Assembly (NCBI GenBank): GCA_947311265.1
Contig: CAMZKQ010000227.1
Location: forward strand, 1 to 37,231
DNA: 37,231 nucleotides
Source of the DNA: an uncultured Chlorobiota bacterium
GTDB lineage: Bacteria; Bacteroidota; Bacteroidia; Bacteroidales; JAADGE01
Reading direction: 5' to 3'
The notes below the pieces were generated by a model. That model saw nothing but the letters and a program-made list of their open reading frames with translations, did no database searches and was not told the origin of the DNA. Below, in pieces: positions 591-33,751 of the stretch (its first letter is position 1; each line of letters starts with the position of its first letter). A program made the position numbers and the translations under genes.

Positions 591-2177
591 ATGAAAATTA
601 AATACAGTTTATTATTTCTGATATTTACAGCCACAATTTATAGCACGCCACTATATTCGCAGCAATTATATAAGGTGTATTTTTCAGATAAAGATGGTGT
701 ACAATTTTCGCCTTACCAATATTTCGATGCCAAGGCAATTGAACGCCGACTTAACTCTGGCATTTCCATTTATCAAAAATCCGATTTTCCTTTGCGGGAA
801 GACTATGTAGCTAAAATTTCGGCAATTACAGGCAAAAATAACTTTAAAATCCGTTGGTTTAACCTCGTTTTTACAGAAGCCACCCCAGAGCAGCTTGCCG
901 AAATATCAAAGCTCCCCTTTGTTGTAAAAATTGAACAATCAATTTTGCAAACCCAACCTGCTAGTACAAACTACAGTACCGACTTAACTCCGGGGGAGGA
1001 GCGTCTGCTCAAAAATCAGATTTTGCATTTACAAGGCAATTTATTTCATGATGCCAATATAAAAGGGCAAGGCATACGTATTGCCGTATTCGATGCAGGT
1101 TTTCCTCAGACCAATACTAGCCCCGCTTTTGAGCATATCCGAAAAAATAATAGGATTATTAAGACTTACGATTTTGCAAAAAATAAAGAATTTGTGTATG
1201 CACACAATGCCCACGGCACTATGGTACTCTCTTGCATTGCAGGAATTGCCGACGGCAAGCCGATAGGCCTAGCCACCGAAGCCGAATTTTTATTGGCACG
1301 CACAGAAGTGGCTACCGAGCCATTTTCGGAAGAAAAGAACTGGCTAGCAGCGGCTCAATGGGCAGATAAAAATGGGGCAGACATTATCAATAGCTCCTTA
1401 GGTTACACTTACCACCGCTATTTTACTTGGCAAATGGACGGAAAAATTAGCCTTGTAGCAAGAGCTGCCAACATGGCGGCATCAAAAGGCATATTGGTGG
1501 TAAATGCCATGGGCAACGATGGCAGCGGCGACTAGAAAGTACTTGGCACACCTGCCGATGCCGATAGCATAATAAGCGTTGGTGGGATAGACCCAAAAAC
1601 ATATTTCCACCAATCATTTAGTTCTTTTGGTCCTACTTCCGATATGCGAATGAAGCCTAATATTTCTGCATTTTCAACAGCTATTGTTGCTGGGAAAGAT
1701 AAGCTAAAAAAAGCACAAGGCACTTCTTTTTCATCGCCACTTACTGCGGGTTTTGCGGCTTGTGCTTGGCAAACCATGCGTAAAAAAAATAGCTCTACAA
1801 CAAATATGGAAGTTTTTACTGCCCTCCAAAAATCAGCAAATTTATACCCCTATTTCGATTATGCACACGGCTATGGCATACCACAAGCCTCTTATTTTTT
1901 AACTGGCAAAAAAGAAGTAGAGCCTACTTTTAGTTTTGAACGAACTGGCGATACTGTTAATATCAAAGCAAAATCGAATTATATAAAGACGGCGGGAAAA
2001 GATAGGCGAAACTACCTTTTTGTTCATGTTGTTGATTCTAAAAATAAGATTCTAAAATACTGGATGGTGGAGGTTTTCCAAGAAGATGCTTTTTCTATTG
2101 ATTTAGTCAATTTCCCGAGAGGTGAAAAAATACAAGCTCACTTTCAGTCTTACACCAATTCGTTTGAAATTAAGTAA
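591..2177 (+). pseudogene. Subtilisin-like serine peptidase (family S8) interrupted by an in-frame TAG at 1533-1535
   Basis: ORFs 591-1535 and 1644-2177 share one frame (both starts are divisible by 3). The catalytic Asp (IAVFDAGF) and His (HGTMVLSC) are in the first part; the Ser (GTSFSSPLTAG) is in the second. The stretch after the stop reads through as KVLGTPADADSIISVGG, which is conserved S8 sequence. There is an N-terminal signal peptide. Confidence 0.85.
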
Positions 2178-2384
2178 CTAAAGTTTAGGAGTTGTTAATA
2201 TATTAATAATAAGGGTATTACAAGAAAAATCAAAACCTGTTAATTGCATGGTAATCAATAGAATAGAAATGTGAAAAAATTGCATAATTAAATATAAATT
2301 ACTTAAAAAAACTCATCTAACTTGGTTTTGTATTCATATTTTAAAAATAGGGGGTCTATTTTTCTGCAAAAGCCAATAATGAGT

Positions 2385-2397
2385 CCGGTCTAAAAAC
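2385..2397 (+). repeat. CCGGTCTAAAAAC motif, copy 1 (upstream of the XRE gene)
   Basis: An exact 13-mer, repeated at 2775-2787 and, with 1 mismatch each, at 23046-23058 (+) and 23153-23165 (-). An adjacent 8-bp-stem hairpin, aaaaatag-ggggt-ctattttt (2343-2363), also contains GGTCTA. Confidence 0.8.
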
Positions 2398-2555
2398 TGT
2401 AAATGAGCAAGTTGCAGATGTTAAATAATATTTTTTAAGGAAACTCAAGTATTTTTCATAAAATCAATTTTCTAACTTTAATTAATATTTAATCTACTAT
2501 AAATTACATTATTTTTTATTTCTTTGTACCCAAGGAACTTAAACTAATATAACAA

Positions 2556-2768
2556 ATGGAAAACTTACTAGCCAAAACTCTTGCCCACAGGGGCATGACA
2601 GGTAGCCAATTGGCTGAAAAGGTAAAGGTGAATAGAAATACAATACAATCTATCAGTACGAAGGAGTTTATACCTAGTATTAGCTTAGCATTGCGAATAG
2701 CACAAGAGCTAAAAACAGATGTAGAGGAAATATTTCAGCTCGAAGAGCATGAATATCCAGAGCCTTAA
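2556..2768 (+). CDS. Small XRE/Cro-C1 family helix-turn-helix transcriptional regulator (70 aa)
   Basis: Translation MTGSQLAEKVKVNRNTIQSISTKEFIPSISLALRIAQELKTDVEEIF fits the HTH_3 pattern (helix, turn, recognition helix, then ...IA..L...). Confidence 0.85.
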   Translation: MENLLAKTLAHRGMTGSQLAEKVKVNRNTIQSISTKEFIPSISLALRIAQELKTDVEEIFQLEEHEYPEP

Positions 2769-2774
2769 TGAAGC

Positions 2775-3310: not shown

Positions 3311-5470
3311 TTAATTATCTTCTTTTAAATCTTCAATTACAAAAACATTTTTTTTTATTTTAGCTTTAAAGTTTGTTTCAGTAACGTTGAGTATCATTTC
3401 TCGCCTATCTGTTATTATGTTTTTAACGTAAGGGATTTTCACACCTTTTGTGCCTGGCACTTCTCTATAATCTGAAAAGAAAACCACTTTATCGACTTCT
3501 TTGCCGCTACTATTGCTTAGAAATTCGGTGCGTATATGCAGTTTTGTTTTAGCATCAAAATAATCAAACTGCTGCTTGCCCGATGGCATTGTTGCTTTTA
3601 CCGAATAAAAGGTTTGTCCCTCTTCGGTAAATCGCCCAATAATTTCTGTTTCGGTGCTATCAGCAAAATAATTGTAGGCATCAAAAGGTTTGCTAAGTGC
3701 AATCACTTCCTGTAAATCAGCTCCGGTAAGTTCTCTTTTACCTTCGGCAGTTTCTAAGGTGGCTCTGCTGCCATCGAATACTTTTTTTTCTATCAGGATT
3801 TTCTTTATCGTATCAATTACAATTTTTTCAAATTTAGTGCCATTACTGGTAAATCCTACTTTAACAGGCTTTAGAAAGTAGGAGGCGGAGTCCAAATATA
3901 GCCAAAGTTCGGAGCTAAATTTTTCTTTTTTCCGGTAAGTGGTCATTTTTACAGGGTAGGTTTTCCCTTCTGATTTATAAGTGCCCTCTGCCTTTATTAT
4001 TTGCCCTTTTTTTGAGATTTCGGTGGAATTTACAGTATTAAAAAAAGAGTTTGCAATTCTTTTAGGACCAAATCCTTTTTTTATAATTTCCACAATGGTA
4101 TCATTTTTTAGGGTATAAATATCGGCATGGTCAGTCATTTTAAGTAGTTCGTTAAACCAAATATCTAAGTTGCCTTTTATTACGGTTAGCATTTTTGATT
4201 TTTCAAAATTATCGGTCATAAATGCTGTTAGCTCTTCGGGCTCTGCAAATTTTAATTTTTCGCTATAGTCAGAAAAGAAGTTCTGTTTTAGTTTATTTTT
4301 CCAGATATAATCAAGCATAATACTTAATTCGTTGGGGCGAAGTAAATCATTAAGAAACTCTTGGTTTAGGGAATTTCCAGTATTTTTCAATAGGGCTTCT
4401 GCAATAGGGGCATTCAAAAATGATTTTTTTATCTCAAATGCTGCGTTTACTGCCTCGGCCAATTTATCTGCTTTGCAGGAAGCTTGCATCGTCCAGACTG
4501 CCGTTGATGTGCAAGCCAATATCTCGGACGAGCAGTTTTGTGCCAAGTTGTAACTGCCGCCCAACTCGGTAAAGAAGTAGCCTGTATTGGGGTGTCCAAA
4601 GGTACTACTTCCCAGTGTGGTAATTGCTAATTTTTCGGGATTTAGCGTGCCTACTTTTAGGCTTACTGTGGCAAAATCACAGTTATCAATGTATTTTTTA
4701 TCGTCCTTATGAAAAAAGTAAATAGCATCTTCCTGTAAAGGGAGGTTTTTAATTTTCTTAAATTTTCGTGATTTTTTTTTACCTAAATTCTGAAAATAAA
4801 TTTCGGCTTTTTCAAAAACCTCTTTTGCGGGGGCATTGGTTATTACCACGATGTGCTTGGGCGAATTACGCATAAATTGGTTATAGTAGCGCTTACAGTC
4901 TTCTTGGTAGATTAAATTTATAGAGTCGCCCAGTATTTTCCCATTGCAAAAATGCCCTTTTTCGTAAACCGAACTTATCGCTTTTATGGCTGTTAGTTCT
5001 GGCTCGCCTCGTAGCTGTTGGGATTTTATGAGTTTCTGCTTAAACTTTTTCAGCAATTTTTTATCAAACCGAGGTTGCTGTAGCGGAATCATCATTGTAA
5101 GAAAAATGCTATCGAAGTTACTCCCTGACGAAAGGGTTATTAGTGAGTTTTCGAGGCTCGAAATTAGAATGCCTTTTTCGTTCACCCAGTTTTTATAGAG
5201 GATTGGTGCTAGCGTATCTGTGCCTTCGCACAGTAGTTGCCCGGTTAGCTTTGCCAGCTGCACTTTGCTTTCTATTTGGGCTGGATTGGGGTGAAAAAAC
5301 AGCCTACAAAAAGTGGCATCGTTCATTTTATTTTCGATACAAGTTACTGCTACTCCGCTTTTTGTAGTGTATGTTTTGGCTTCCGATAGGGCGACAAGAA
5401 TCTGCTCTGTTTGTGAGAAAACAGGTCGGAAAAATAATATCAGCGAAAGCATTACAAGTATTTTTTTCAA
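3311..5470 (-). CDS. Secreted hypothetical protein (719 aa), possibly a distant non-catalytic M16/insulinase-like fold
   Basis: Long uninterrupted ORF with a signal peptide (MKKILVMLSLILFFRPVFSQ). No HxxEH zinc motif is visible. It ends 4 nt from the upstream MORN-repeat gene, so the two are probably co-transcribed. Confidence 0.8.
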   Translation of the reverse strand: MKKILVMLSLILFFRPVFSQTEQILVALSEAKTYTTKSGVAVTCIENKMNDATFCRLFFHPNPAQIESKVQLAKLTGQLLCEGTDTLAPILYKNWVNEKGILISSLENSLITLSSGSNFDSIFLTMMIPLQQPRFDKKLLKKFKQKLIKSQQLRGEPELTAIKAISSVYEKGHFCNGKILGDSINLIYQEDCKRYYNQFMRNSPKHIVVITNAPAKEVFEKAEIYFQNLGKKKSRKFKKIKNLPLQEDAIYFFHKDDKKYIDNCDFATVSLKVGTLNPEKLAITTLGSSTFGHPNTGYFFTELGGSYNLAQNCSSEILACTSTAVWTMQASCKADKLAEAVNAAFEIKKSFLNAPIAEALLKNTGNSLNQEFLNDLLRPNELSIMLDYIWKNKLKQNFFSDYSEKLKFAEPEELTAFMTDNFEKSKMLTVIKGNLDIWFNELLKMTDHADIYTLKNDTIVEIIKKGFGPKRIANSFFNTVNSTEISKKGQIIKAEGTYKSEGKTYPVKMTTYRKKEKFSSELWLYLDSASYFLKPVKVGFTSNGTKFEKIVIDTIKKILIEKKVFDGSRATLETAEGKRELTGADLQEVIALSKPFDAYNYFADSTETEIIGRFTEEGQTFYSVKATMPSGKQQFDYFDAKTKLHIRTEFLSNSSGKEVDKVVFFSDYREVPGTKGVKIPYVKNIITDRREMILNVTETNFKAKIKKNVFVIEDLKEDN

Positions 5471-7567: not shown

Positions 7568-7765
7568 ATGAAAAAATTTCTTCTTCTTTGTGCTTTTATT
7601 ATAGCACTTTTAGTTACTCCTATTTTTGTACAAACTGCCGCCAGCCAGCCCCCTCCACCACCACCACAAGATATTCCTATTGATGGGGGACTAAGTATAT
7701 TGCTAATTGCAGGTGCTGCTTATGGTGCAAAACGTTTGCATGCAGCAAAGAAAGAACAGGATTAA
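7568..7765 (+). CDS. 65-aa mini-protein: signal peptide, poly-Pro run and a PEP-CTERM-like 'PIDGG' C-terminal sorting signal
   Basis: The translation reads MKKFLLLCAFIIALLVTPIFVQTAAS (signal), QPPPPPPQD (poly-Pro), IPIDGG (motif), LSILLIAGAAYGA (TM helix), KRLHAAKKEQD (basic tail). It ends 21 nt before the exosortase-family gene. Confidence 0.7.
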   Translation: MKKFLLLCAFIIALLVTPIFVQTAASQPPPPPPQDIPIDGGLSILLIAGAAYGAKRLHAAKKEQD

Positions 7766-7786
7766 GAATAGTGCAACTCGTTTTTA

Positions 7787-8368
7787 ATGCCCAAAACAAC
7801 GACTAGAATAAACTTCAGCTCTTTATGGATTCGTTTTTTGATTTCGAGCTTGGTTCTTTTTATCTCGTTTATCGTCTTTTACTATGTACTCCGAGAAATT
7901 AAATTTATCAACGATTTATATGTTGATGTGTTAAACCACTTTGCAACATTTCTATTAACTAGCTCCCAAACATTTACCGAACTATTTGGTTTTGAAGTAA
8001 CTATATACGGAAAAACCATCAGAATTATAGATGGGCTAAAGGCACATGGTGTATATTTAGACCGTGGTTGTATGGGGCGAAATGTAATGCTTGGCTTTAT
8101 AGGCTTTATTATAGCTTTCCCGGGTAAAATAAAAGACAAATTTTGGTACATACCGTTAGGCCTAATCATTTTAATTTTTGTTAATATCCTCAGGATTTCG
8201 GGTCTAGCAATAGTTGCATACTGTTGCCCAGAATATAGTGATGTAAACCATCATATTATTTTTAAATATACTGCATGGGCGGTAATTTTAATTCTCTGGA
8301 TAATCTGGATAAACAAATTTAGCCCTGTAAAGCTAAAAAAATCAAAAGATAAAATGCCGATAGATTAA
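7787..8368 (+). CDS. Exosortase/archaeosortase-family integral membrane transpeptidase (XrtF-like, 193 aa)
   Basis: Polytopic membrane protein with candidate catalytic residues in the family order: Cys (YLDRGCMGRNVM), Arg (FVNILRISGLAIV) and His (DVNHHIIFKY). The small size and the C-terminus ...LWIIWINKFS resemble Bacteroidota XrtF as I remember it. Confidence 0.65.
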   Translation: MPKTTTRINFSSLWIRFLISSLVLFISFIVFYYVLREIKFINDLYVDVLNHFATFLLTSSQTFTELFGFEVTIYGKTIRIIDGLKAHGVYLDRGCMGRNVMLGFIGFIIAFPGKIKDKFWYIPLGLIILIFVNILRISGLAIVAYCCPEYSDVNHHIIFKYTAWAVILILWIIWINKFSPVKLKKSKDKMPID

Positions 8369-11800: not shown

Positions 11801-13488
11801 TTAATTTTTTGCACTTTGTATCGACTGTGTTATATTAATAATGCTATCGCCTAGGGCTTCGCAAACGGAGTAGATTTCGGAATACACTAAGCCAACTTTA
11901 AATTTATATTTCTTCTCTTTGATGCTATTAAGGTGTTCTGAGCGGAGCTTGTTGCGCAACGTATTTATTTGTTTTCAATTTCGTGTGCTTCAACATCATT
12001 CACCTCGCTATATTCGTTGGAGAGGTTTTTATTCATTTCGATAAGTGCTTTATCTACCAGGGAAAACATTTTCTTTAAGTTCTCTTCAATTTCGGGGGTA
12101 AATTTAATTTTACCTGTAAATTTTTGCATATAAACACGCCCTAAGTTGTAGCAGGAGTCTGCAATACTTTCAATGTCATCAATTAATTCGAGCATAGCTC
12201 GAACTCTATGTGTGCCAAGCGTGCTTAATCTAGACTCCGAAACTTTGGTAAGGAACTCTGCAATTTCCTCTTCCATACGGTCAGAAATATCTTCGTATTT
12301 AGATATTTTTGCATACCATTTTTCAATTTCTTTTGAACTTTTTGTTTCGCTCATTTGCTTTACAAACTCGAACATACCCGATGCACGCAGCCCATAAACT
12401 GCAATTTCGTTTCTGGCTTGCAGAAGTGCAATTTCGGAAGTCGAAACCATGCCTGTACGGATATGTTGCAAGCGAAAATCCTCATCGGCATCTTTTTCAG
12501 GGACTAGTTTTGTAACCACCTTTACAATAAATGGGGCAAACCAAGCTAAAATAAGGACATTCATAACATTAAATGCAGTATGGAAAATAGATAATGCAAC
12601 TGGTACTGCAGCTTTTTCTAGTAATGGAGATTTGCCTTCCATTTCTACTACAATATTATCGATTAAATGTATTGTGGGGTAAAATAAAATAAGAATCCAG
12701 ATTACGCCAAAGAGATTAAATATAAGGTGTGCCCTAGCCGCTCGCTTGGCAGAAGTATTGGCCACTATGGCAGCTAAATTGGCAGTAATAGTTGTGCCGA
12801 TATTTTCGCCCAAAACCATGGCTGCCGCCATATCAAAGGGGATTAAGCCTTGCACACAAAGCACAAGTGTAAGTGCCATTGTTGCACTGGACGATTGTAT
12901 AACAACAGTAAGTACAGTACCCACCATCATAAATATGATAAGCGAGAAGTAACCCAAGTGAGTATAGTTACTTAAAAAATCAAGAATTTCTGGATTGTGT
13001 TTTATGTCGGGGACTGATTCTTTTAGGAATTGTAAGCCTATAAACAGGAGCGAAAAGCCAATAATAAATTCGCCCCACGATTTTCGCTTTGTGTTTTTTG
13101 AAAAAAGTAATGGAAAACCCAGCCCTATTATTGGCAAAGCCAAGGCACTCATTTTTACTTTAAAACCAAGTATTGATATTAGCCAAGCAGTAACTGTTGT
13201 ACCAATATTTGCCCCCATTATTACACCTACCGACTCTGTAAGCGAGAGCAAACCAGCATTTACAAAACTAACTACCATTACTGTGGTTGCAGATGAGGAC
13301 TGTATTACGGCAGTTATTAGCACCCCAGTAAAAATGCCCTTTACACGGTTCGATGTCATGGCAGCAAGAATACTACGCATTTTTTCGCCAGCCACTTTTT
13401 GTAGTGCCTCGCTCATTAATTTCATTCCGTATAGGAAAACTCCTAGTGAGCCAAGGAGCTTTAAAAAATCTGTAAATCCGTATTCCAT
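11801..13488 (-). pseudogene. Na+/phosphate cotransporter family protein (NptA/PhoU-domain type) with a 1-nt frameshift near its 3' end
   Basis: The duplicated QSSSATT motifs are present (VIQSSSATTVMV, VIQSSSATMALT). The ORF stops at 11965 (..HEIENK*). The expected PhoU-like C-terminus, INTLRNKLRSEHLNSIKEKKYKFKVGLVYSEIYSVCEALGDSIINITQSIQSAKN*, continues in the -1 frame down to 11801. The shift lies within 11965-11975, in the run aacaaataaa on the coding strand. Confidence 0.8.
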
Positions 13489-14616: not shown

Positions 14617-15010
14617 ATGAAAAAACATATCCAAACAAATAGTAGTAACGCTCGTTTTAATAACCGCACTAGCCAGCTCTTGCAAATCGCCAGAACTGGT
14701 ATTTCCTATTGCCTCAAAGCAAATTGTAAAAGAGTACAAAAGCCACAAATGGCGGTCGAACCGGTGGTATAAAAATAAAGAACTAGAAATACAAGGTACG
14801 ATTAGCAATATTTACAAAAATAAACAAGGGCATTCTATCATTATCTTAGCAAAGCCAGAAGCCCCTTATGGCGTAAGCTGTACGGTAGAAAATCTAGAAA
14901 AACAAATAAAAAAGCCCTTGGTTAAAAACCAATTAATTACAGTACGAGGCATTTGCGTGGGCGTAGAAACCCACGTTGAACTAAAAAAATGTACGATTAT
15001 AAAAAAATAA
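14617..15010 (+). pseudogene. OB-fold (tRNA_anti-like) lipoprotein whose start codon is out of frame across an A6 tract
   Basis: The frame from 14621 to TAA at 15008-15010 encodes KNISKQIVVTLVLITALASSC (lipobox), then KSPE...ELEIQGTISNIYKNKQGHSIIILAK...ITVRGICVGVETHVELKKCTIIKK. It has no in-frame start. The only ATG (14617) is +1 out of frame and separated by aaaaaa (14620-14625). The locus is not in the ORF track. Confidence 0.6.
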
Positions 15011-16791: not shown

Positions 16792-17724
16792 ATGGAATAT
16801 AAAATGAAAGTGTTTTCAGGCTCGGCCTCTCGCTACCTTGCCGAAAAAATAGTTGAAAGCCAAGGCTTAAAACTGGGGAAATCATTCATGCAAACCTTTA
16901 GCGACGGCGAATTTCAGCCCGGCTACGAAGAAACCGTAAGAGGGAAATTTGTATTTATCGTACAATCCACTTTCACTCCTAGCGAAAACCTTTTTGAATT
17001 ACTAATGATGATTGATGCTGCTCGCCGAGCCTCAGCCTACAAAATTGTCGCAGTAATCCCTTATTTTGGCTTCGCTCGGCAAGACAGGTAAGACAAACCA
17101 AGGGTATCTATTGGGGCAAAACTAATTGCCAACTTACTCTCCGCCGCAGGGGTTTCCCGAATAATTACAATGGATTTACACGCCGACCAAATTCAAGGTT
17201 TTTTCGATGTCCCGGTGGATCATTTATACTCATCTTCTATTTTTGTACCCTACCTAAATGCCCTCAACTTAGACGATGTTATTATCGCCTCCCCAGATAC
17301 GGGTGGCACAAAAAGAGCAAATACCTACTCTAAATTTATGAAAACAGGCATGGTAATTTGCCATAAATCAAGAGAACAGGCCAACATTGTTAGCGAAATG
17401 ACCGTAATTGGCAATGTAAAAGGCAAAAATGTAATTATTATAGACGACCTTATTGATACCGCAGGTACAATTACAAAAGCCGCAGACATGATGATGCAAC
17501 AAGGTGCAAAAAGTGTACGTGCAGTAGCTACCCATGCAGTCCTATCGGGCCCAGCCTACGAGCGTATCGAGAAATCGGAAATTACAGAGCTAATTGTTAC
17601 CGACACCATTCCGCTAAAGCAAAAATCAGATAAAATTAAAGTGCTTTCTGTTGCCGAATTATTTGGCGATGTGATTACTAAAGTCCATAATTTCCAGTCC
17701 ATTAGCTCTAGTTTTATTGTTTAG
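16792..17724 (+). pseudogene. prs: Ribose-phosphate pyrophosphokinase (PRPP synthetase) interrupted by an in-frame TAA at 17089-17091
   Basis: ORFs 16792-17091 and 17170-17724 are in the same frame. Read-through gives [48 protein letters not shown], where homologues as I recall them have Lys or Arg at the stop position. The PRPP loop VIIIDDLIDTAGT is intact. Confidence 0.9.
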
Positions 17725-23031: not shown

Positions 23032-23043
23032 AGGCACCTATGC

Positions 23044-23167
23044 GGCCGGTCTAAAAAGTCGCCCTGCGGGTAGTTTTCCTGAAAAACTCAAATTTAGAAC
23101 CTGAAAATCAATCAGTTATACCATTTGCAGAGCGACAAATTTTCTTTTTTTAGTTTTTAGACTGGCC
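23044..23167. repeat. 124-bp palindromic intergenic element with 14-bp terminal inverted repeats GGCCGGTCTAAAAA / TTTTTAGACTGGCC (MITE-like or structured RNA)
   Basis: The termini pair 13/14. An inner complementary pair is GTCGC (23058-23062) and GCGAC (23132-23136). The termini carry the same CCGGTCTAAAAA motif found at 2385 and 2775. Confidence 0.55.
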
Positions 23168-23281
23168 CCATCTAATTATTTTCTCAAAAATTATTCTTTT
23201 TTTGATTAGAAAATATATACCAAAAAATTATTTCCTTAAAATTTATACTTATCTTGCCAAACGGAAAACAAAACAGAAATT

Positions 23282-23761: not shown

Positions 23762-23818
23762 AATAAAAAAAATCGTAACACCTTAAATATATAGATATAG
23801 GCAACTCAAAAAAACAAA

Positions 23819-24934
23819 ATGGACGAGCAAATATTCATATTAGACAAGAATAAATCACTAATAGAGCTAAATGAGAAGGAATTTATAAGTGAAAAACAAT
23901 TTCAAGAATTATTAGAAAAATATCCAAAGTTAATACCTGGTAGTCAAATAAATCCTAGAAACCCCAGAAAATGGATTTTAATATCACGAGAATTTGGTGT
24001 CCCTGATGAAGAATACGGTAATAATAAATGGTCATTAGACCACTTATTTATAGACCAAGACGGAATACCAACACTTATTGAAGTAAAAAGAAGCACAGAT
24101 ACAAGAATAAGAAGAGAAGTTGTTGGGCAAATGCTTGATTATGCGGCAAATGCAGTCTCTTATTGGTCAATTAATGAAATTAGAACAAAATATGAAAAGT
24201 ATTGCGATAATAACAATTTAGACCCCGAAATACAAATTCAAGAATTAACAGAAAACAACAATATTGAAAAATTTTGGGAGCTTGTTGATACCAACCTCAA
24301 AGCGGGAAAAATAAGAATGCTTTTTGTTGCCGACAAAATACCAAAAGAATTGCAAAGAATTATTGAGTTCTTAAATGAACAAATGGCACCGGCAGAAGTT
24401 TTGGGAGTTGCATTAAAACAATTTGGAAACGAAACAATTAAAATCCTCGTTCCGCAAGTTGTCGGGCTAACTTCTTCTGCACAAATAAAAAAGGGAGTTA
24501 AAGAATATAACAAATGGACAGAAGAAACTTTTTACAATGAATTAGCTCTAAAAAATGGTAAAATTGAAGTTGCTGTTATAAAAAAAATAATTACACATTT
24601 TGAAAACAAAATTACAAGATTTTGGTTTGGAGAAGGCAAAATACATGGTTCTATAATTCCTGTGCTTGACTTACCAAAAAAATCTTATTATCTTTTTGCG
24701 ATGTGGACTTATGGTAAAATTGAAATATATTTTCAATGGAACAAAAATAAAAAGCCTTTTGATAAAATAGAAAAACGCAAAGAATTATTACAAAAATTAA
24801 ACACAATAGAAAATCTAAATATTCCTGAAAATAAGATAGATAAAAGACCTTCGTTTCCGGTAAAACTATTAGAAAAACAATCCGAGTTTGATAAATTTGT
24901 TCAAGTTTTTGATTGGTTTTTAAATGAAATTTAA
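23819..24934 (+). CDS. PD-(D/E)xK nuclease-fold protein (NucS/DUF91-like core) with an uncharacterised C-terminal domain
   Basis: The segment SLDHLFIDQDGIPTLIEVKRSTDTRIRREVVGQMLDYAANA gives D...(I)E-V-K followed by a Q..DY helix, the classic restriction-endonuclease-like core. The N-terminus has the ...EKQFQELLEKYPKLI pattern seen in such nucleases. The gene is very AT-rich. Confidence 0.6.
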   Translation: MDEQIFILDKNKSLIELNEKEFISEKQFQELLEKYPKLIPGSQINPRNPRKWILISREFGVPDEEYGNNKWSLDHLFIDQDGIPTLIEVKRSTDTRIRREVVGQMLDYAANAVSYWSINEIRTKYEKYCDNNNLDPEIQIQELTENNNIEKFWELVDTNLKAGKIRMLFVADKIPKELQRIIEFLNEQMAPAEVLGVALKQFGNETIKILVPQVVGLTSSAQIKKGVKEYNKWTEETFYNELALKNGKIEVAVIKKIITHFENKITRFWFGEGKIHGSIIPVLDLPKKSYYLFAMWTYGKIEIYFQWNKNKKPFDKIEKRKELLQKLNTIENLNIPENKIDKRPSFPVKLLEKQSEFDKFVQVFDWFLNEI

Positions 24935-24980
24935 AAATAAATTAACTTTGTCAAGTTTTATTTTATTAAAATAAATAATT

Positions 24981-26015
24981 ATGCAAGGACACATAAAAAC
25001 ATTAAGAATACAAAATTTCAAATCAATAAAAAACATACAGATAGATAATTTTAGTCGTATAAACTTATTTATAGGAAAACCTAACGTTGGAAAATCAAAT
25101 TTATTAGAAGCTCTGAGCCTTTTTAGTATTCCATATTACAAACAAAATACAAACAAAAAAATTTCTAATTTTCTTAGGTTAGAAAATGAAGCAGAACTTT
25201 TTTTTGACGGCAATATTGAAAATGAGATTTCAATAAAAACAAATATTGCAAATTGCATAATAAAACATTCTAAAATTTTAGGATTGGATTTAGGAAAAAA
25301 CAGCATTGGTTGGGCAGATTTAAGAAAACTGTTAATTGAAATTCAACATCCCGAAAGTAAAGAAAAAATACAGTTTACACTCGATGATAAATTGAATTTA
25401 AAATCTGATTTAAAAATAAATGCAGAATTTCCTGTTAAAAGATATTTATTTGTCCCTAATGCAAAGAGTAAAAAATCAAACATTCCTTTTCTAATTCCGC
25501 CAACGGGAACTAATTTAATGACTATCATAGAGCAAAATAAAGAGCTCAAAAATGAATTAATAAATATTTTTTCAGAATACGGTTTAAATATTGTTTTTGA
25601 TAAAGCAAGTCAAACATTAAAAATTTTGAAAAAAAACAGAGAAAATGATTTGTTTTTAATACCATACAATTCAATAGCAGATACACTACAACGCATAATA
25701 TTTTACAAAAGTGCAATAGTATCAAATAAAAATTCTGTTCTTTTATTTGAAGAACCCGAAGCTCATTCATTTCCGCCATACATTGTTCACATAACGCAGG
25801 AAATAATACATTCTAAAAGTAATCAGTTCTTTATATCAACTCATAGTCCGTATATAGTTAATGACTTTTTAGAAAATTGCAGAGAAGATTTGTCTATATT
25901 TTCAACAGATTTTAAAAACGGAGAAACCGTTATAAGACAATTAACAAAAGACGAAATATACGAAATATATCAATATGGCGTAGATATATTTGCAAACAAT
26001 GAAAGCTATTTGTAA
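24981..26015 (+). CDS. Compact ABC/OLD-type ATPase (AAA_15/AAA_21-like, 344 aa)
   Basis: The N-terminal beta strand IKTLRIQNFKSIK is followed by Walker A GKPNVGKSNLLEAL, Walker B/D-loop VLLFEEPEAHSFPP and H-loop ISTHSPYIV. Confidence 0.8.
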   Translation: MQGHIKTLRIQNFKSIKNIQIDNFSRINLFIGKPNVGKSNLLEALSLFSIPYYKQNTNKKISNFLRLENEAELFFDGNIENEISIKTNIANCIIKHSKILGLDLGKNSIGWADLRKLLIEIQHPESKEKIQFTLDDKLNLKSDLKINAEFPVKRYLFVPNAKSKKSNIPFLIPPTGTNLMTIIEQNKELKNELINIFSEYGLNIVFDKASQTLKILKKNRENDLFLIPYNSIADTLQRIIFYKSAIVSNKNSVLLFEEPEAHSFPPYIVHITQEIIHSKSNQFFISTHSPYIVNDFLENCREDLSIFSTDFKNGETVIRQLTKDEIYEIYQYGVDIFANNESYL

Positions 26016-26017
26016 TT

Positions 26018-26563
26018 ATGATAGATTTATCAATAATTCCCGAATGCTATATTGACACAAATCTTATAGAAACAATAGTTCCGACAACAAGGGGATACAA
26101 TCATCAAAAAGGAGCAGGGACGGTAACAAGACTTATGCAAAGTAAATTAAGTGATAAGTTTGCAGTAGGAATTGTAGATTGAGATAAAAAACAACTAAAA
26201 TATGTTGAAGAATTTGACATCAAAATTGATATTGGCGATTTGTTATTATTCAAGCATAAAAATCAAAAAAAACACCACTATTTAATTTTTATAAATCCTG
26301 CAATGGAAAAGTGGATTATGAAAAATGCAGATGAAGCAGGAATATCTTTACAAGATTACGGATTACCTGACAACTTGAAAGAACTCGCAAAAATAACAAA
26401 AAAGGTAACAAGCAAAAAAGACAATACTTTCAAAAAACTATTCAGAGAACTAAAAATACGTAATCCAAAAAATGTAGAGATACTATCTAATTGGATAAAA
26501 TATTTAAAAGAAAATCCATACAATGTGGATATTAACGAAATGCAAAAAATGACAGAAATATAA
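26018..26563 (+). pseudogene. Small Toprim-like (E ... DxD) protein, translationally coupled to the ATPase and interrupted by an in-frame TGA at 26180-26182
   Basis: The ATG at 26018 lies 2 nt after the ATPase stop. The same frame continues into ORF 26240-26563. The translation is MIDLSIIPECYIDTNL...KFAVGIVD*DKKQLKYVEEF..., with a Glu at residue 9 and D-stop-D at residues 54-56. The family assignment is tentative. Confidence 0.5.
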
Positions 26564-26688
26564 TGCCTATATCATTGGCTTGGTGTCAGCCATATCCGTT
26601 AAAATTACAGATATATCGTCAATTAAAAAAAAGACCTTTCAGTCTTAATATTTTTTCCAAAAAATTAGTCTGTAAAAATACAATTGTA

Positions 26689-26696
26689 TATATTTG
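26689..26696 (+). promoter_or_regulatory. -7 box candidate TATATTTG upstream of sufB
   Basis: Matches TAnnTTTG, 66 nt upstream of the ATG at 26762. Confidence 0.35.
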
Positions 26697-26761
26697 CACT
26701 TTATTTAGAATAAATCTAAATAGTACGGCTTTAAGCCATTTTATAAATAAAAGACAAAACA

Positions 26762-28207
26762 ATGAGTTCCGAAGACCAAATAATACAAGAACTTACCGAG
26801 AAAGAATATGATGCTGGATTTTATACAGATATTGAATCCGAGGTTTTTCCGTTAGGATTAAGCGAAGATATTGTACGAAAAATATCTGCAAAGAAAAACG
26901 AACCCGAATTTATGCTTGCCTTTCGGCTAAAAGCCTACAAAAAATGGCTTACTATGCAGGAGCCAGATTGGGCAATGCTTAAATACGAAAAGCCAAATTT
27001 TCAGGACATTAGCTATTATTCAGCCCCCGTAAATACTCCCAAATATAACAGTTTAGACGAAGTGGACCCCGAACTATTAGCTACTTTCGAGAAATTGGGC
27101 GTTCCCCTAAAAGAGCAAAAAATGCTCTCCGGTGTTGCCGTAGATATTGTAATGGACAGCGTTTCTGTACACACCTCATTCAAAGAAACTTTGGCAGAAA
27201 AAGGCATTATTTTTTGCTCAATAAGCGATGCCATACAGGAACACCCAGAATTGATAGAAAAATACATGTCGAGCGTAGTACCAATTACCGACAATTATTA
27301 CGGTGCATTAAATTCTGCCGTATTCACCGATGGCTCATTCGCCTATATCCCAAAAGGCGTGCGTTGCCCTATGGAATTATCCACCTACTTCCGTATCAAT
27401 CAAGGAAATACAGGGCAATTTGAGCGAACGCTCATCGTAGCCGACGAAGGCAGCTATGTAAGCTACTTGGAAGGTTGCACAGCCCTGCAACGAGATGAAA
27501 ATCAGCTGCATGCAGCTATTGTAGAAATCATTGCAATGAAAGATGCCGAAGTCAAATACTCCACTGTACAAAACTGGTATCCTGGCAACAAAGACGGGCT
27601 TGGAGGCATCTACAATTTTGTTACCAAACGAGGCATCTGCAAAGGCGACAACTCCAAAATATCATGGACACAGGTAGAAACAGGCTCTGCCGTTACTTGG
27701 AAATACCCCAGCACAATTTTACTAGGAGATAATTCCGTTAGCGAATTTTATTCCGTTGCCGTTACCAACAACTACCAACAAGCAGATACTGGTACAAAAA
27801 TAATACACATCGGAAAAAACACAAAAAGCACAATCATTTCCAAAGGTATATCCTTGGGGCGAAGCCACAATACTTACCGAGGGCAAGTAAAAATAAACAA
27901 GGGAGCAGATAACGCACGCAACTACTCCCAATGCGACTCCCTACTTATCGGCGGGCAATGCGGTGCTCATACATTTCCGTACATCGACACCGAAAACCCT
28001 ACCGCAACGGTAGAACACGAAGCCACCACCTCCAAAATATCCGAAGACCAAATTTTCTATTGCAACCAACGTGGGCTAGATACTGAAAACGCTGTAAGCC
28101 TTATTGTAAACGGATTTGCAAAAGAAGTGCTGAACAAACTCCCTATGGAATTTGCATCAGAGGCACAAAAATTATTAGCAATAACGCTTGAAGGCAGCGT
28201 TGGATAA
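26762..28207 (+). CDS. sufB: Fe-S cluster assembly scaffold protein SufB
   Basis: 481 aa, with conserved stretches [39 protein letters not shown]...YRGQVKI and [20 protein letters not shown]. Confidence 0.95.
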
Positions 28208-28253
28208 ATGGTAAGGTTCAAATTTGAAAAAAGTTTATAAAGACACCTAGATA

Positions 28254-28946
28254 ATGAAACCTAAATTATTAATTTTACCGCTACTGTTACTAATTATTTC
28301 TTCTGCAAACGCACAAAAAACCGAAAAATTTATAACAAAAAACTATTTCGGAATAAAAGCTGGAAGTAATTTTTCGCAAATTAATTTGGATATTATTGAA
28401 ACCAACCCAGTAATTAATTCGCAAGAATTTTTTAATGGAATTTCAGGGGGGCTAGTTTACAAAAACATGGAAGAACAATGGTTTGCCCTACAAATAGAGT
28501 TACTCTATTCTCAAAAATCAGGACAAAACTATTTCGACAAATCTAGCTTACCAGACACTTTAAATATGCCGGCATATATCCCTTATAATCTTACACTTAA
28601 CCAAATTGAAATACCTGTACTTGCCAACCTTAATTTCGGAAAAGGAAACAACAAACTCAACTTCATACTCGGGCCTTATTTTGCATACACGCTCGGGAAA
28701 AAGATAAGCTTTACCAAAGGCACACAGCTTGAAAAAGGGCATTATCCTGCAACTGACCGCAACTACGAACTGGGCGTAAATATAGGCATCGGCTATGGCA
28801 GAATTATCAGCAACGGAATGCTCGAAGCCGAATTTAGATTTACACAAGCATACACAAATATCTACAACACAAAATCAGTAAACAAATCATTAATTTATCA
28901 AACACAAGCACTCACATTTTCAGTAAGTTACTTGTATAATTTATAG
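28254..28946 (+). CDS. Outer-membrane beta-barrel protein (PorT-like family), inserted between sufB and sufC
   Basis: Signal peptide, the motif YFGIKAGSNFSQI, an alternating strand pattern, and a C-terminal ...LTFSVSYLYNL. Confidence 0.75.
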   Translation: MKPKLLILPLLLLIISSANAQKTEKFITKNYFGIKAGSNFSQINLDIIETNPVINSQEFFNGISGGLVYKNMEEQWFALQIELLYSQKSGQNYFDKSSLPDTLNMPAYIPYNLTLNQIEIPVLANLNFGKGNNKLNFILGPYFAYTLGKKISFTKGTQLEKGHYPATDRNYELGVNIGIGYGRIISNGMLEAEFRFTQAYTNIYNTKSVNKSLIYQTQALTFSVSYLYNL

Positions 28947-28996
28947 GTCAGATATTTATTTTCTAAAAATATCTAAAATCTAAAATCTAAACAAAA

Positions 28997-29752
28997 ATGC
29001 TAAAAATAAAAAACTTAAAAGCAGAAATAGACGGAAAAGAAATACTAAAAGGCATAAACCTTGAAGTAAAACCCGGAGAAGTACACGCCATAATGGGGCC
29101 AAATGGCTCAGGAAAAAGTACCCTTGCATCAGTTCTCGCTGGGCGAGATATTTTTAATGTTACCGAAGGCACAATCGAATTTCAAGGCGAAAACTTACTC
29201 GACTTAAACCCCGAAGAACGTGCAAGAGAAGGCATTTTTCTTGCTTTTCAGTACCCTGTTGAAATTCCGGGCGTAAGCATCACCAACTTTATGCGGGCAG
29301 CCGTGGACGAACACCGCAAACACAAAGGGCTTGAACCACTTACTGCAGGGCAGTTCCTAAAGCTAATGAGAGAGAAAAAAGCCCTTGTAGAAATGGAAGC
29401 AAAATTAGAAGGACGTGCCGTAAATCAGGGCTTTTCGGGAGGCGAAAAAAAGAAAAATGAAGTCTTCCAGATGGCAATGCTCGAGCCCAAACTTGCCGTA
29501 CTCGACGAAACCGACTCGGGCTTAGATATTGATGCTCTACGGGTAGTTGCCAATGGGGTAAACAAGCTCAAAAACAAAACCAATGCAAGTATCGTAATAA
29601 CCCACTACCAAAGGCTTCTGGACTACATTGTACCCGACGTTATCCACGTACTTTACGACGGCAAAATAGTAAAAACAGGTGGAAAGGAACTCGCCTTAGA
29701 ACTGGAAGAATTAGGCTATGATGCCATAAAAAAAGAAGCCGATTTAAACTAA
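28997..29752 (+). CDS. sufC: Fe-S cluster assembly ATPase SufC
   Basis: Walker A GPNGSGKST, signature FSGGEKKK, Walker B LAVLDETDSGLD and H-loop ITHYQRLL. Confidence 0.95.
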   Translation: MLKIKNLKAEIDGKEILKGINLEVKPGEVHAIMGPNGSGKSTLASVLAGRDIFNVTEGTIEFQGENLLDLNPEERAREGIFLAFQYPVEIPGVSITNFMRAAVDEHRKHKGLEPLTAGQFLKLMREKKALVEMEAKLEGRAVNQGFSGGEKKKNEVFQMAMLEPKLAVLDETDSGLDIDALRVVANGVNKLKNKTNASIVITHYQRLLDYIVPDVIHVLYDGKIVKTGGKELALELEELGYDAIKKEADLN

Positions 29753-29806
29753 ATATTTAATTTTCACCTCCCCCTTTTTAATTAATAAAGAAACACAAAT
29801 AAAAAC

Positions 29807-30352
29807 ATGAAAAAAATAATTTACGCAATAGCATTTGTAGCACTTATCGCCTCTTGTGGCGAAAACAAAGTAAATAAAGCTAAAGAATCTACAAAAAAAG
29901 TAGCCGACAAAATTACAGAAGTAAAAATAGAAACGCCCAAAAAACTACACGGCGACTCTGTCCTACTTGGTAGTTTTGATGTTGAAATAAAACTTACAGA
30001 AAGGGCCGCAAAAAAATTGAAAGAAGCCAAAGAAACCATTATAATCGCCTTATTTTATACTGCTGACCCCAAGGATAAAACTTCTAACGACTATCTCGAA
30101 AATGGAAATATCACCGTTCTTTCTAAAGATATTGAGTTGCCCGTAGGCACATATACAGCAACAATTCCGGGCTACTACATCAGTAAAGAAAAATTTGACT
30201 CCCTCGAAAAACCAGAAATAACCGTTACTGCAAACATCATTTCAGGACGAAAATCATCAGAATACAACTTACTCAGCTCACCAGAAATAATAGCAAAACC
30301 CATAGAAAAAGTAAAAGGCACAAAAGTAATCTTTGACACAGATTTGATATAA
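29807..30352 (+). CDS. Hypothetical lipoprotein (181 aa)
   Basis: Lipobox FVALIASC at residues 10-17. No recognisable family. Its last 35 nt are duplicated at 30955-30989. Confidence 0.7.
   Translation: MKKIIYAIAFVALIASCGENKVNKAKESTKKVADKITEVKIETPKKLHGDSVLLGSFDVEIKLTERAAKKLKEAKETIIIALFYTADPKDKTSNDYLENGNITVLSKDIELPVGTYTATIPGYYISKEKFDSLEKPEITVTANIISGRKSSEYNLLSSPEIIAKPIEKVKGTKVIFDTDLI
30318..30352 (+). repeat. 35-bp direct repeat, copy 1 (3' end and stop codon of the lipoprotein gene)
   Basis: gcacaaaagtaatctttgacacagatttgatataa is identical to 30955-30989. Confidence 0.9.
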
Positions 30353-30413
30353 CTCCCAATTTATTTTGTTTTTGAACTGTACTCAATAAAAGTCAATTTG
30401 GAATAATAATAAA

Positions 30414-30871
30414 ATGAAAACTTTAGAATTTAAAAAGCTTCCACCACAGGAAAATATAGAAACCGTAAACGTTTATATTGCCTTAAACAAGGCAAGCCGA
30501 GCATTAGCGGAGCTAAAAGGCGAAGTTAAAACTATTCCAAACGAAACCATTTTAATAAATACACTTGGACTTCAAGAGGCAAAAGAAAGTTCGGAAATAG
30601 AAAATATTATTACCACTCAAGACGACTTATTCAAAGCCCAAATTGATAAAAACTTCAAGAATGTAGCAGCCAAGAGCTTGTAAATAACCTTTTTAAACAC
30701 CCTTACACAAAAATTGAATTTATTGAAAACGACTTGAATGTTTCACGGTATACTGCTGCAAGTTACCTCAACAAGCTTGCCAAAGGAAAATATATTGAAA
30801 AAGTAAAAATCGGGAGAACTAATTTTTATATTAATTTACCACTCTTCCAACTTTTGCAGGACATTAACTAA
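30414..30871 (+). pseudogene. Fic-family protein remnant: N-terminal (Fic_N-like) 89 aa joined out of frame to the C-terminal winged-helix ~65 aa, with the catalytic Fic core deleted
   Basis: ORF 30414-30683 (...IENIITTQDDLFKAQIDKNFKNVAAK) stops. The +1 frame from 30674 to TAA at 30869-30871 reads ELVNNLFKHPYTKIEFIENDLNVSRYTAASYLNKLAKGKYIEKVKIGRTNFYINLPLFQLL, a typical Fic-protein C-terminus. No HxFx(D/E)GNGR motif appears anywhere. Confidence 0.8.
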
Positions 30872-30893
30872 ACTAATATGTTTATAAAACACC

Positions 30894-30946
30894 TTTTTTT
30901 CAACACATCTAAAAAACGTGTTGAAAAAACCTTGTTTTTTCAACAC
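30894..30946 (+). other. Three-part mutually exclusive hairpin (T7-CAACAC / GTGTTG-A6 / T6-CAACAC)
   Basis: tttttttcaacac (30894-30906), gtgttgaaaaaa (30918-30929) and ttttttcaacac (30935-30946). The middle arm can pair with either flank. Confidence 0.5.
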
Positions 30947-30954
30947 ATAAAAAA

Positions 30955-30989
30955 GCACAAAAGTAATCTTTGACACAGATTTGATATAA
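30955..30989 (+). repeat. 35-bp direct repeat, copy 2 (37 nt upstream of sufD)
   Basis: Identical to 30318-30352. Confidence 0.9.
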
Positions 30990-31026
30990 ATAAAAAAGAC
31001 CTCAACCAAGGCATAAAAAATACAGA

Positions 31027-32370
31027 ATGAGCCCACAGAACGATTTAACAAAACAAGAATTTCTGCACACCTTAAATGTAGAAAATAAACACATAGCCAC
31101 CCTAGAAGCAAAAAATACCGCTTTAGCGGATATAAAAAAATTTGCATTTCCATCAAAAAATGAGGAAGCATGGCGAAAAACAGATATTCGCCCCATCTTG
31201 CGACACCGCTACAAAAAAGGGCAGCCTGTAAAAGTTTCCCAGCACACTGTCGAAATGTACCGCATCACCGATTTTGATACCGATACACTCGTTTTTATAA
31301 ACGGCCATTTCTCAACAGAACACTCCACCGTACAGCCCAACCAAAAAGGCTTTTTTGCAGGAAGTGCCAAAGTCGCAAAAAACAAATTCCCCGACACCTT
31401 CAAAACCCACTTTTCAAAAGCCGGATTTGAAGACGACAACCTATTTTCGGCCATCAATACTGCTTTCGCAGAAGATGGGTTCTGCATTTTATTGCCACAA
31501 AATTTCATAGCAGAAAAGCCCATTCGTATTCTCAACTTTACCGATGGCGATGACCAGAAAATCATTAACCAAACCCGCAATCTTATTATTGCAGGCAAAA
31601 ATTCGCAAGCCAACATAATCTGTTCATACCACTCATTATCAACAAATTACACACTAAACAATGTAACAACAGAAATTTTTGTAGAGCAAAATGCAAACCT
31701 CAATTTTAGCGTCTTCCAAGGCGAAGGCGATGATGCTTTTCATATCTCTAATACACAAATTACACAACAGAAAAACAGCGTTTATACAGAAAACAGAACT
31801 ACCCTCTGCGGAGCAATCGTACGCAATGCAATATCAGTAAAACTCGCAGGAGAATATGCCGAAACTACCCTCAATGGCTTATATATGCCCGACCGTGAGC
31901 AACATTTCGACAACCATATTTTCATAAAACACGAAGCCCCGCATTGCAAAAGCACACAGCTCTACAAAGGTATTCTGGACAATAAAGCAAAAGCCATTTT
32001 TACAGGAAAAGTATTTGTAGGCAAAAAAGCCGAAAAAACAGATGCCGTACAAGCCAATAAAAACCTACTACTTTCCAACTATGCCAAAGCATTCAGCCGC
32101 CCGCAACTAGAGATATACACCGACGACGTAAGTTGTGCCCACGGCTCAACCACTGGGCAGCTCGACAAAGAAGCCATCTACTATATCCGCACACGAGGCA
32201 TCGGCGAAAAACAAGCACAAGTACTTATGACTTACGCCTTTGCAAGCGAAGTTATTAATAAAATAAAAAGCCAACCCTACAAAGAGTACATTGATTATCT
32301 GGTAGATATGCGGCTAAAAGGCGAAAAAGTTACCGGCATCTGCTCACAACAATATTGCCATGGGTGCTAA
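31027..32370 (+). CDS. sufD: Fe-S cluster assembly protein SufD
   Basis: 447 aa. The N-terminal FPSKNEEAWRKTDI and the C-terminal beta-helix region LYKGILDNKAKAIFTGKVFV...QANKNLLLS...RPQLEIYTDDVSCAHGSTTGQLD are typical of SufD. Confidence 0.9.
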   Translation: MSPQNDLTKQEFLHTLNVENKHIATLEAKNTALADIKKFAFPSKNEEAWRKTDIRPILRHRYKKGQPVKVSQHTVEMYRITDFDTDTLVFINGHFSTEHSTVQPNQKGFFAGSAKVAKNKFPDTFKTHFSKAGFEDDNLFSAINTAFAEDGFCILLPQNFIAEKPIRILNFTDGDDQKIINQTRNLIIAGKNSQANIICSYHSLSTNYTLNNVTTEIFVEQNANLNFSVFQGEGDDAFHISNTQITQQKNSVYTENRTTLCGAIVRNAISVKLAGEYAETTLNGLYMPDREQHFDNHIFIKHEAPHCKSTQLYKGILDNKAKAIFTGKVFVGKKAEKTDAVQANKNLLLSNYAKAFSRPQLEIYTDDVSCAHGSTTGQLDKEAIYYIRTRGIGEKQAQVLMTYAFASEVINKIKSQPYKEYIDYLVDMRLKGEKVTGICSQQYCHGC

Positions 32371-32978
32371 AAGCCCTAAGGGCTACCCTACCTTACAGTT
32401 AATGAAAAAGTTATAAAACTAAAGTTTCGGAGTGCTTAGCTCCTTAATATATACTGTATTTATTTTTAATTTGACTTTATCTTATTGATTTATTGTATTT
32501 ATTTACAGGTAGTTACAAAAAGAATTCTTATTTTACGGCTTTTAAAGCAATTAACATTTTTATTATTTTATGTTCTGTTTTTTCTTGGTTAATAATTTTG
32601 CTTATAAAATTGTTAATATCTAAATCTCTTTGTCCAACCTTTTTACGGAAGCATATATCTCTAAAATGGACTTTTAAAATCATAAAAAACACCTTTACCC
32701 AATTTTGTAATTTCCTTAAAATTAGATATAAAAAAAAGAATTAAAAAAGTATCGTCTGATTTTACTCCTTTACTTTTTATTTCAGAAAATTTATTTGACA
32801 GAGCTTTGATTTTAAATCAATCAAAAGCATCAACCAATTTGTCTGAAAATTTTGTTTTAACTACTTCAAAAATAGTAATTTACATTTAATTATGCAACTT
32901 TTCCACACCCCTATCCTACTGATTACTAACCAATTAACACTTCTTAGCTTTTCTTGTAATAGCCTTATTATTAATACA

Positions 32979-33751
32979 TTAACAAGTCCGAAACTTTAGT
33001 TCTTTATTAAAAATCCCAAAAACGGCCGACCCGCTGCCCGACATTGAGGCATAAATTGCTCCATCGGTGTACATTTGTGCTTTTAGTGCTGCTATTTCTG
33101 GGTGTTTTTTTAATACCGTTTTTTCAAAATCATTTTTGATATTATTTTTCCATTGCTCTACTGGTAATTTTATTAACTCTTTAAGTGAGGTTTGGGGCAG
33201 GTTTGGGGATATGCCTGAAAAGGCATCGGGGGTGCTAACAAAAATATTGGGTTGTATTGTTCTAATTTCGTATGGGCTTAAATCTAAGCTAATTGCTGAA
33301 AAAATATTGCCTGTTCCTTGGGCAAAAGTGGCTTTGTTTTGTATAAAAAAAGGGCAATCGCTGCCTAATTTTAGTGCGTAACTTTCTAATTTTTTATCCG
33401 TAATATTGAGCGAAAATAGTTGATTTACAGCTTTTAGCATAAATGCAGCGTCTGCCGACCCACCACCCAATCCTGCCCCTGCCGGAATGTTTTTTTGAAG
33501 TGTTATGCTTAAATTGGGTAATTTAAAGGCTTTTTGCAAAAGCCTAAATGCTTTAACAACTAGTTGTTTTCTGGGTCAATTTTTAAATCCATGCCATATT
33601 GCTCAAATTTAAAACCCTTGCTTTCTGTAATTTCTAGCTTATCTTTTAAAGCTATTGGGTAAAAAATGGTTTCTAAATCGTGAAAGCCATCGGCTCTTTT
33701 TCGGATTATATTTAATCCGATATTGATTTTTGCATTGGGATAAACGACCAT
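32979..33751 (-). pseudogene. ispE: 4-(cytidine 5'-diphospho)-2-C-methyl-D-erythritol kinase (IspE) with a 1-nt frameshift near 33560-33566
   Basis: The N-terminal ORF (33560-33751, MVVYPNAKINIGLNI...KIDPENN*) stops. The conserved continuation LVVKAFRLLQKAFKLPNLSITLQKNIPAGAGLGGGSADAAF (GHMP kinase motif) is in another frame and overlaps the stop. Restoring one base in ...gaaaacaa|cta... gives ENNLVVKA. Confidence 0.85.

Follow-up and report, generated by a model that had tools for sequence, protein, structure and literature searches.

Seven of the approximately 37 genes in the DNA analyzed here, a stretch of 37,231 nucleotides (nt) that makes up one entire NCBI assembly contig (36% GC; hereafter "the window"), are disrupted. 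Three genes carry premature stops (those for a Peptidase S8 protein, for ribose-phosphate pyrophosphokinase, prs, and for a 181-amino-acid (aa) protein of a defence-type cassette), three carry 1-nt frameshifts (those for a Na+/Pi cotransporter, for an OB-fold lipoprotein and for CDP-ME kinase, ispE), and a Fic gene has been gutted. Each of the seven lesions can be seen in the deposited sequence at the position given in Table 1, which upholds the original prediction that seven of about 37 loci are disrupted by mixed types of mutation; the remaining 30 of the 37 genes look full-length. The six point lesions have, in our judgment, about an even chance of being consensus or amplification artefacts of a low-coverage or low-quality metagenome-derived assembly, and not a property of a living lineage. 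The Fic remnant, seventh of the lesions, is an old mobile-element scar that is real, ordinary and unrelated to the other six.

The number of broken genes is far above usual. Pseudogenes make up a few percent of ordinary bacterial genomes, and against this baseline the Poisson probability of finding seven broken genes among 37 is about 1e-4, indicating that they are not a chance cluster. The lesions are evenly spread along the contig, and the point lesions are derived relative to all homologues, with one lesion per gene. The genes prs and ispE are normally indispensable. Essential genes constitute about 22% of the coding sequence and received two of the six point lesions (prs and ispE); they were thus struck in proportion to their coding share, which is the pattern of an unselected process. 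Such a process explains why essential and dispensable genes were struck alike and why the genes are otherwise pristine. The original prediction had noted normally essential genes among those disrupted. This applies to prs and ispE, but the product designated "S8" is a secreted subtilase, not ribosomal protein S8, and is therefore non-essential.

Table 1. Coordinates of the broken genes and of the mobile cassette in the window.
Feature	Position	Strand	Lesion or remark
Peptidase S8 (subtilase) gene with signal peptide	591..2177	+	in-frame TAG at 1533-1535
Na+/Pi cotransporter, two C-terminal PhoU domains	11801..13488	-	1-nt deletion within 11965-11977 (runs T3/T4)
OB-fold (PF12869, tRNA_anti-like) lipoprotein	14617..15010	+	1-nt insertion within 14620-14642
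prs (ribose-phosphate pyrophosphokinase)	16792..17724	+	in-frame TAA at 17089-17091
181-aa cassette gene	26018-26563	+	TGA at 26180-26182, ancestral AGA (Arg)
ispE (CDP-ME kinase)	32979..33751	-	1-nt deletion at 33555-33568
Fic remnant	30313..30989	+	Fic_N 30414-30683; SoFic-like C-terminal winged helix-turn-helix (wHTH) 30671-30871 (Pfam on joined pieces)
Low-GC (27.5%) mobile three-gene cassette, 2.8 kb	23794..26593	+	similarity to public copies ends at 23794 and 26593
PDC-S11-like gene	23819-24934	+	cassette gene 1
AbiLi/AriA-like ATPase	24981-26015	+	cassette gene 2

Premature stops

The TAG of the Peptidase S8 gene lies inside the Pfam PF00082 domain (residues 159-429 span the stop). Trp occupies this column in 119 of 119 homologues, and the change is from an ancestral TGG to TAG. 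The TAA in prs cuts the gene at codon 100 of 310 and replaces the Lys of ARQDR[K]DKPR; the closest relative, whose protein is about 91% identical (P0135/L004), has AAA at this position, giving a change from AAA to TAA. Intact homologues of the 181-aa cassette gene, 181-184 aa in length, are found in three assemblies, one of which has AGA at the site of the TGA (L001) and two of which have AAA (L007 and L009). The contigs of four public metagenome runs (X1, X2, X3 and X7), which are 97-98% identical, likewise have A at 26180. Two of the three stops, those in prs and in the cassette gene, are A>T transversions. No common sequence or methylation motif was seen around the three substitutions, nor was there any sign that inverted or direct repeats close by had templated them.

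A 27-nt inverted repeat (26 of 27 positions complementary) at 462-602 flanks an 87-nt spacer upstream of the S8 gene. A Bacteroidota -7-like TATATTTG box occurs within this spacer, 47 nt upstream of the S8 start codon, and the ATG itself is part of the repeat's right arm, a layout that resembles that of an invertible promoter (inverton). A 136-nt repeat is present in two copies, 83% identical and in inverted orientation, at 2168-2303 and 32874-33008; one copy lies directly 3' of the S8 gene and the other overlaps the 3' end of ispE, so that both neighbors are broken genes. No Rfam family matches the repeat, and its predicted fold has no advantage over that of shuffled sequence (z = -0.5); it could be a terminator-associated element or resemble a miniature inverted-repeat transposable element. 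Among the homologues of prs, one protein from an ENA contig (P0001) is 481 aa long, its first ~170 residues being tandemly duplicated internally, most likely through an assembly artefact in that contig, which is public and unrelated.

Frameshifts

The Na+/Pi cotransporter matches the Pfam families Na_Pi_cotrans and PhoU, and its shift removes only the last ~55 residues. In the mended tail the second PhoU domain is matched at profile positions 8-88 of 89 (E = 0.002), whereas the truncated tail gives no match. The extra base in the OB-fold lipoprotein gene lies just past the start codon, either in ATG+A6 or in the neighboring A3, and separates the start from the signal peptide and body of the protein. 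Either mend yields a lipoprotein signal peptide, the mended protein matches PF12869 with E = 3e-12, and no alternative start was found in the frame of the body.

The ispE frameshift cuts the gene at codon 63 of 257. The missing base falls between AAC AAC and TA GTT GTT, where homologues read PE(N/D)NLV(V/M)KA. The mended protein matches Pfam GHMP_kinases_N and GHMP_kinases_C, and its residues 1-257 align end to end with 246 homologous loci. The deletion sits at the center of a perfect 14-nt palindrome, AACAACTAGTTGTT, at 33555-33568, one of only five perfect palindromes of at least 14 nt in the window. Before the lesion the site would have been a quasi-palindrome with a 6-bp stem and a 3-nt loop. 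By a post hoc estimate, the chance that one of three random shifts would fall in such a site is less than 1%. This suggests polymerase template switching at the quasi-palindrome, either in the cell or during in vitro amplification.

Age of the point lesions

To judge from the sequences, the six point lesions are very young, because each gene has a single lesion and is otherwise conserved; the claim of youth in the original prediction is thereby borne out. We defined conserved columns as those with the same residue in at least 97% of about 120 homologues. Two of 124 such columns deviate in prs (I>L and L>M, both conservative), where the background mean for other members of the alignment is 0.56, and one of 113 deviates in S8, where it is 0.75. 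The intact asparaginyl-tRNA synthetase gene asnS (P0264) shows no deviations at 199 conserved columns. It was found by way of the asnS of a relative in Joint Genome Institute (JGI) metagenomes, to which this NCBI protein is 86% identical, and lies on a contig of 21.7 kb that probably belongs to the same assembly as the window. There is thus no excess of missense changes at the conserved columns of prs, S8 and asnS, in a comparison that is underpowered and cannot separate the hypotheses, an error rate of 0.2% predicting only about two extra deviations in 436 columns.

For the 181-aa cassette gene, close copies permit a direct comparison. The window differs from X1 at six synonymous and five non-synonymous positions and by one nonsense change, a pattern indicating that purifying selection acted until the stop arose.

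Origin of the point lesions

We infer that the point lesions originated not in the cell but in sequencing or assembly. Where an assembly is public, fragmented, metagenome-derived and sampled only once, the unselected process most often at work is error in the consensus or in amplification, and blindness to essentiality, as seen in prs and ispE, argues against a viable decaying lineage. Errors are somewhat more likely than the start of genome decay. Base miscalls fixed into the consensus would have made the three stops, and single-base insertions and deletions (indels) the three frameshifts, with a polymerase or amplification template switch possibly responsible at the ispE palindrome. In that case the organism behind the contig would be an ordinary bacterium of Bacteroidales-like type, free-living and probably at home in marine sediment or a hydrothermal setting, and its prs, ispE, S8 protease, Na/Pi transporter, OB-fold lipoprotein and defence gene would all be intact.

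Spurious lesions of this kind have been described. Assemblies with little coverage or of poor quality give spurious internal stops together with frameshifts, and in that work the best indicator that an assembly is poor is a surplus of internal stops (Cooley & Wright 2024, PMC11017572). The window resembles these cases in that it combines stops and frameshifts, one per otherwise conserved gene and with essential genes included, and in that it comes from a fragmented, singly sampled public assembly. It differs from them in that it implies a high rate of substitution error (about 0.2%), has no lesion in a long homopolymer, and includes one indel that perfects a palindrome.

A consensus of low quality is the most economical reading, but its fit to the lesion spectrum is imperfect, and several observations weigh against it. 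Only 4.8% of the possible substitutions in these genes create a stop; if errors fell at random, some 60 substitutions in 33 kb (0.2%) would be needed to produce three stops, which would be a very poor consensus. A>T, the change seen at two of the three stops, is not a typical class of miscall. The ratio of stops to frameshifts, 3:3, is unlike the indel-dominated error of long reads. The reading frame is kept across all 67 coding homopolymers of 7-9 nt, and the frameshifts occur at runs of at most 6, that in ispE at no run longer than 2. The original prediction that only some of the lesions sit in short homopolymers, and that stop-making substitutions are atypical of homopolymer error, holds, and none of the lesions falls in any of the 67 long runs. 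Chemistries limited by homopolymers (Nanopore R9, 454 and Ion Torrent) are excluded by the intact long runs (PMC9262707). Finally, the palindrome-completing deletion in ispE looks like a DNA template switch and not like base-calling noise.

The foremost alternative, which we regard as possible but doubtful, is that the lesions are real and that these genes became pseudogenes very recently, when selection on the lineage was suddenly relaxed, the candidate causes being recent dependence on a host or partner or a severe bottleneck. Dispensable functions would have been lost first and the core machinery kept: the losses would comprise a secreted protease, a phosphate importer, a surface lipoprotein, a putative phage-defence nuclease, and the synthesis of phosphoribosyl pyrophosphate (PRPP) and of isoprenoid precursors, which would be supplied externally, while Suf, PfkA, MutS2, Mrp, RlmH and asnS are all intact. 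Three nonsense mutations, three frameshifts and one large deletion form a natural spectrum of inactivation, unlike indel-dominated error, and the long homopolymers are untouched. The perfected palindrome in ispE is a signature of template switching in replication, and a recent burst of real inactivation fits both the spectrum and the palindrome better than an artefact does. The window-specific differences in the cassette gene are rich in synonymous changes, as in true divergence, and a singleton lineage in the public data is what would be expected of a rarely sampled associate. However, prs and ispE would have to be dispensable or backed up, prs and S8 are unbroken in the only relative (about 90% protein identity), and two of the three stops are A>T changes, which are rare in natural bacterial spectra. 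The gene content and the environmental associations also look free-living.

Recently host-restricted or bottlenecked bacteria with young pseudogenes include Sodalis, Mycobacterium leprae and Salmonella Typhi. The window is like these in its high local density of broken genes (7 of 37), in its mixture of nonsense, frameshift and deletion lesions, and in losses that fall in transport, surface, defence and biosynthetic genes. It is unlike them in that the lesions include prs and ispE, in its free-living aspect, and in the absence of the other marks of decay. No transposase or insertion sequence (IS) was found among the open reading frames of the window that were scanned, so the IS load within the window, which the original prediction had proposed as a check, lends decay no support. 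The coding density is normal at 88.5%, the spacers of the window contain no eroded coding remnants, and the dispersed repeat content consists only of the two-copy 136-nt repeat. There is accordingly no IS proliferation or expansion, no lowered coding density, no older, eroded pseudogene and no gene hit more than once. The single gene retrieved from what is probably a further contig of the assembly, asnS, gives decay no support either, being intact.

A more specific form of the same idea, which we hold only tentatively and consider a little less probable still, is that the six lesions are real and record how metabolic dependence began in a marine, Bacteroidales-like lineage that is undescribed. 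PRPP synthesis, the MEP pathway and the four other functions would have been lost within about 0.2% divergence and before any bloom of IS elements or shrinkage of the genome, and the environmental assembly would have captured decay at an unusually early moment. The original prediction had offered three explanations, namely low-quality consensus, early genome decay and the consensus of a heterogeneous population. Decay finds no independent support in the window, and the consensus of a mixed population does not by itself create nonsense codons; none of the three is proven, and low-quality consensus keeps its place as the simplest.

It is unlikely that the lesions are a mixture, in which those of accessory genes (the putative cassette nuclease, S8, the lipoprotein and the Na/Pi tail) are real or polymorphic, and those of prs and ispE are errors of the consensus, or minority alleles that a thin assembly of a heterogeneous population picked up. 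Ordinary genomes often contain broken genes of the defence and accessory classes, the cassette is mobile and was acquired recently, and the cost of the Na/Pi shift is confined to the end of the protein. However, two independent causes would be needed for lesions that look alike (each is single and young, and their spacing is even), the sequence offers no means of telling two classes of lesion apart, and rare deleterious alleles do not normally prevail at several sites in a consensus built by majority rule. Readthrough or recoding of the stops (by a suppressor tRNA, a reassigned codon or a programmed frameshift) that leaves the genes functional is very improbable and was rejected: although tolerated in-frame stops have been reported in bacteria (PMC7918605, PMC9122581), each of the stops here takes the place of a different residue (W in the case of TAG, K in that of TAA and R in that of TGA), all three codons also terminate genes in the window (TAA 29, TAG 5 and TGA 1), relatives carry sense codons at these positions, and the window has no tRNA gene, no match to an Rfam element and no slippery site that we could find.

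Both leading explanations, the spurious pseudogenes of low-quality assemblies and young pseudogenes under relaxed selection, are known phenomena, and the lesion spectrum alone cannot tell one from the other. The consequences differ. If the point lesions are consensus errors, about one base in 500 of the contig may be wrong; missense differences, start codons and the "broken" defence gene would have to be treated with caution, and the assembly would be unfit for inferring pseudogenes or the loss of pathways. If the lesions are real, they offer a rare and very early view of gene loss in the Bacteroidota, prs and ispE included, and predict dependence on external nucleotides and isoprenoid precursors.

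The Fic remnant

The Fic lesion is of a different kind. Its Fic_N and SoFic-like C-terminal domains are in different frames, and the Fic core, the domain characterized by the motif HxFx(D/E)GNGRxxR, is absent from between them. The remnant thus resembles Fic/DOC proteins of the SoFic-like type in its Fic_N domain and C-terminal wHTH, and differs from them in having no catalytic core, so that it is not a member capable of function. A 40-nt direct repeat brackets the remnant (30313-30352 and 30950-30989, 39 of 40 positions identical) and duplicates the 3' end of the upstream lipoprotein gene (29807-30352). An element integrated into the 3' end of the lipoprotein gene, duplicated 40 nt and was later mostly deleted, leaving the Fic remnant. 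The large deletion claimed in the original prediction is therefore real, but pooling it with the six point lesions is not justified, as it is an old scar.

The remnant lies within an interrupted suf operon (26762-32370), in which the order is sufB, a gene for an outer membrane beta-barrel protein, sufC, the lipoprotein gene, the Fic remnant and sufD. Downstream of sufD there is no sufS, but instead an AT-rich spacer of 600 nt without coding signal.

The defence-type cassette

The 181-aa gene that carries the TGA is the third gene of a mobile cassette inserted between a deaminase gene and sufB. In other assemblies, and in metagenomes of marine sediments and hydrothermal vents, copies of the cassette that are 88-98% identical occupy unrelated genomic contexts. 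The ATPase encoded by the second gene has PADLOC matches to AbiLi (3.5e-23), PDC-M38A (4.6e-22) and AriA (1.4e-16), and Pfam matches to AAA_15 and AAA_21. Its 181-aa partner has no Pfam or PADLOC match. A pattern of E9...D54-x-D56 can be read from the sequence of the partner, and the TGA replaces the x. The label "Toprim-like" given to this gene in the original prediction is not backed by either database and depends on the E...DxD pattern.

The pair is comparable to modules of the AbiL and PARIS types, in which an ABC-type ATPase is accompanied by a small Toprim or DUF4435 effector. The likeness lies in the matches of the ATPase to AbiLi, PDC-M38A and AriA, in a small partner gene that starts 3 nt after the ATPase stop and encodes the E...DxD pattern, and in the mobility and low GC content of the module. 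The differences are that the partner corresponds to no Pfam or PADLOC model and is broken within DxD, and that the upstream PDC-S11-like gene accompanies the pair, both here and in the closest public copies.

Gene content and relatives

The predicted gene content of the window is typical of a free-living Bacteroidota bacterium. The genes include those for cargo proteins of the type IX secretion system (T9SS), an XrtF-like exosortase, a MORN-repeat protein, MscS, RlmH, a SpoU methylase, MutS2, an Mrp/NBP35 ATPase, NifU, SufBCD and PfkA. The best homologues of the housekeeping proteins are about 75% identical and belong in part to metagenome-assembled genomes designated "Bacteroidales bacterium" or "Bacteroidota bacterium". 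There is one closer relative only, that from the JGI metagenomes, whose proteins are about 91% (prs) and about 90% (PfkA) identical; the DNA identity of these two genes to the window is 74-78%. Gene order is not conserved relative to the nearest relatives (L004, L005 and L010), and a comparison of spacers for eroded genes is thus unusable.

Among about 15 billion proteins, no same-species match of at least 90% identity was found for any housekeeping protein tested. With no same-species partner protein, no lesion was seen twice. A scan of the GTDB representatives with MutS2 revealed no close genome, and the organism of the window is absent from the public runs searched, in which the contigs of X1, X2, X3 and X5 were compared over 18000-37231. 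The DNA common to the window and the public runs is the mobile cassette only. The cassette-bearing runs are metagenomes of marine sediment, hydrothermal vents, brine and epibionts, which suggests a free-living marine origin for the organism.

Two start codons in the window depart from ATG. The gene for an M16-like peptidase (3311-5470) has TTG at what appears to be the classic MKK start of a signal peptide, and mutS2 (17744-20233) begins at GTG. Both could be rare starts of the ordinary kind, or else start codons altered by further point changes. The region 7568-8368 contains the XrtF-like exosortase gene and, directly upstream of it, a gene whose 65-aa product has a signal peptide, a stretch rich in Pro and a hydrophobic, basic tail at the C-terminus; this product and the exosortase are likely to be a substrate/enzyme pair.

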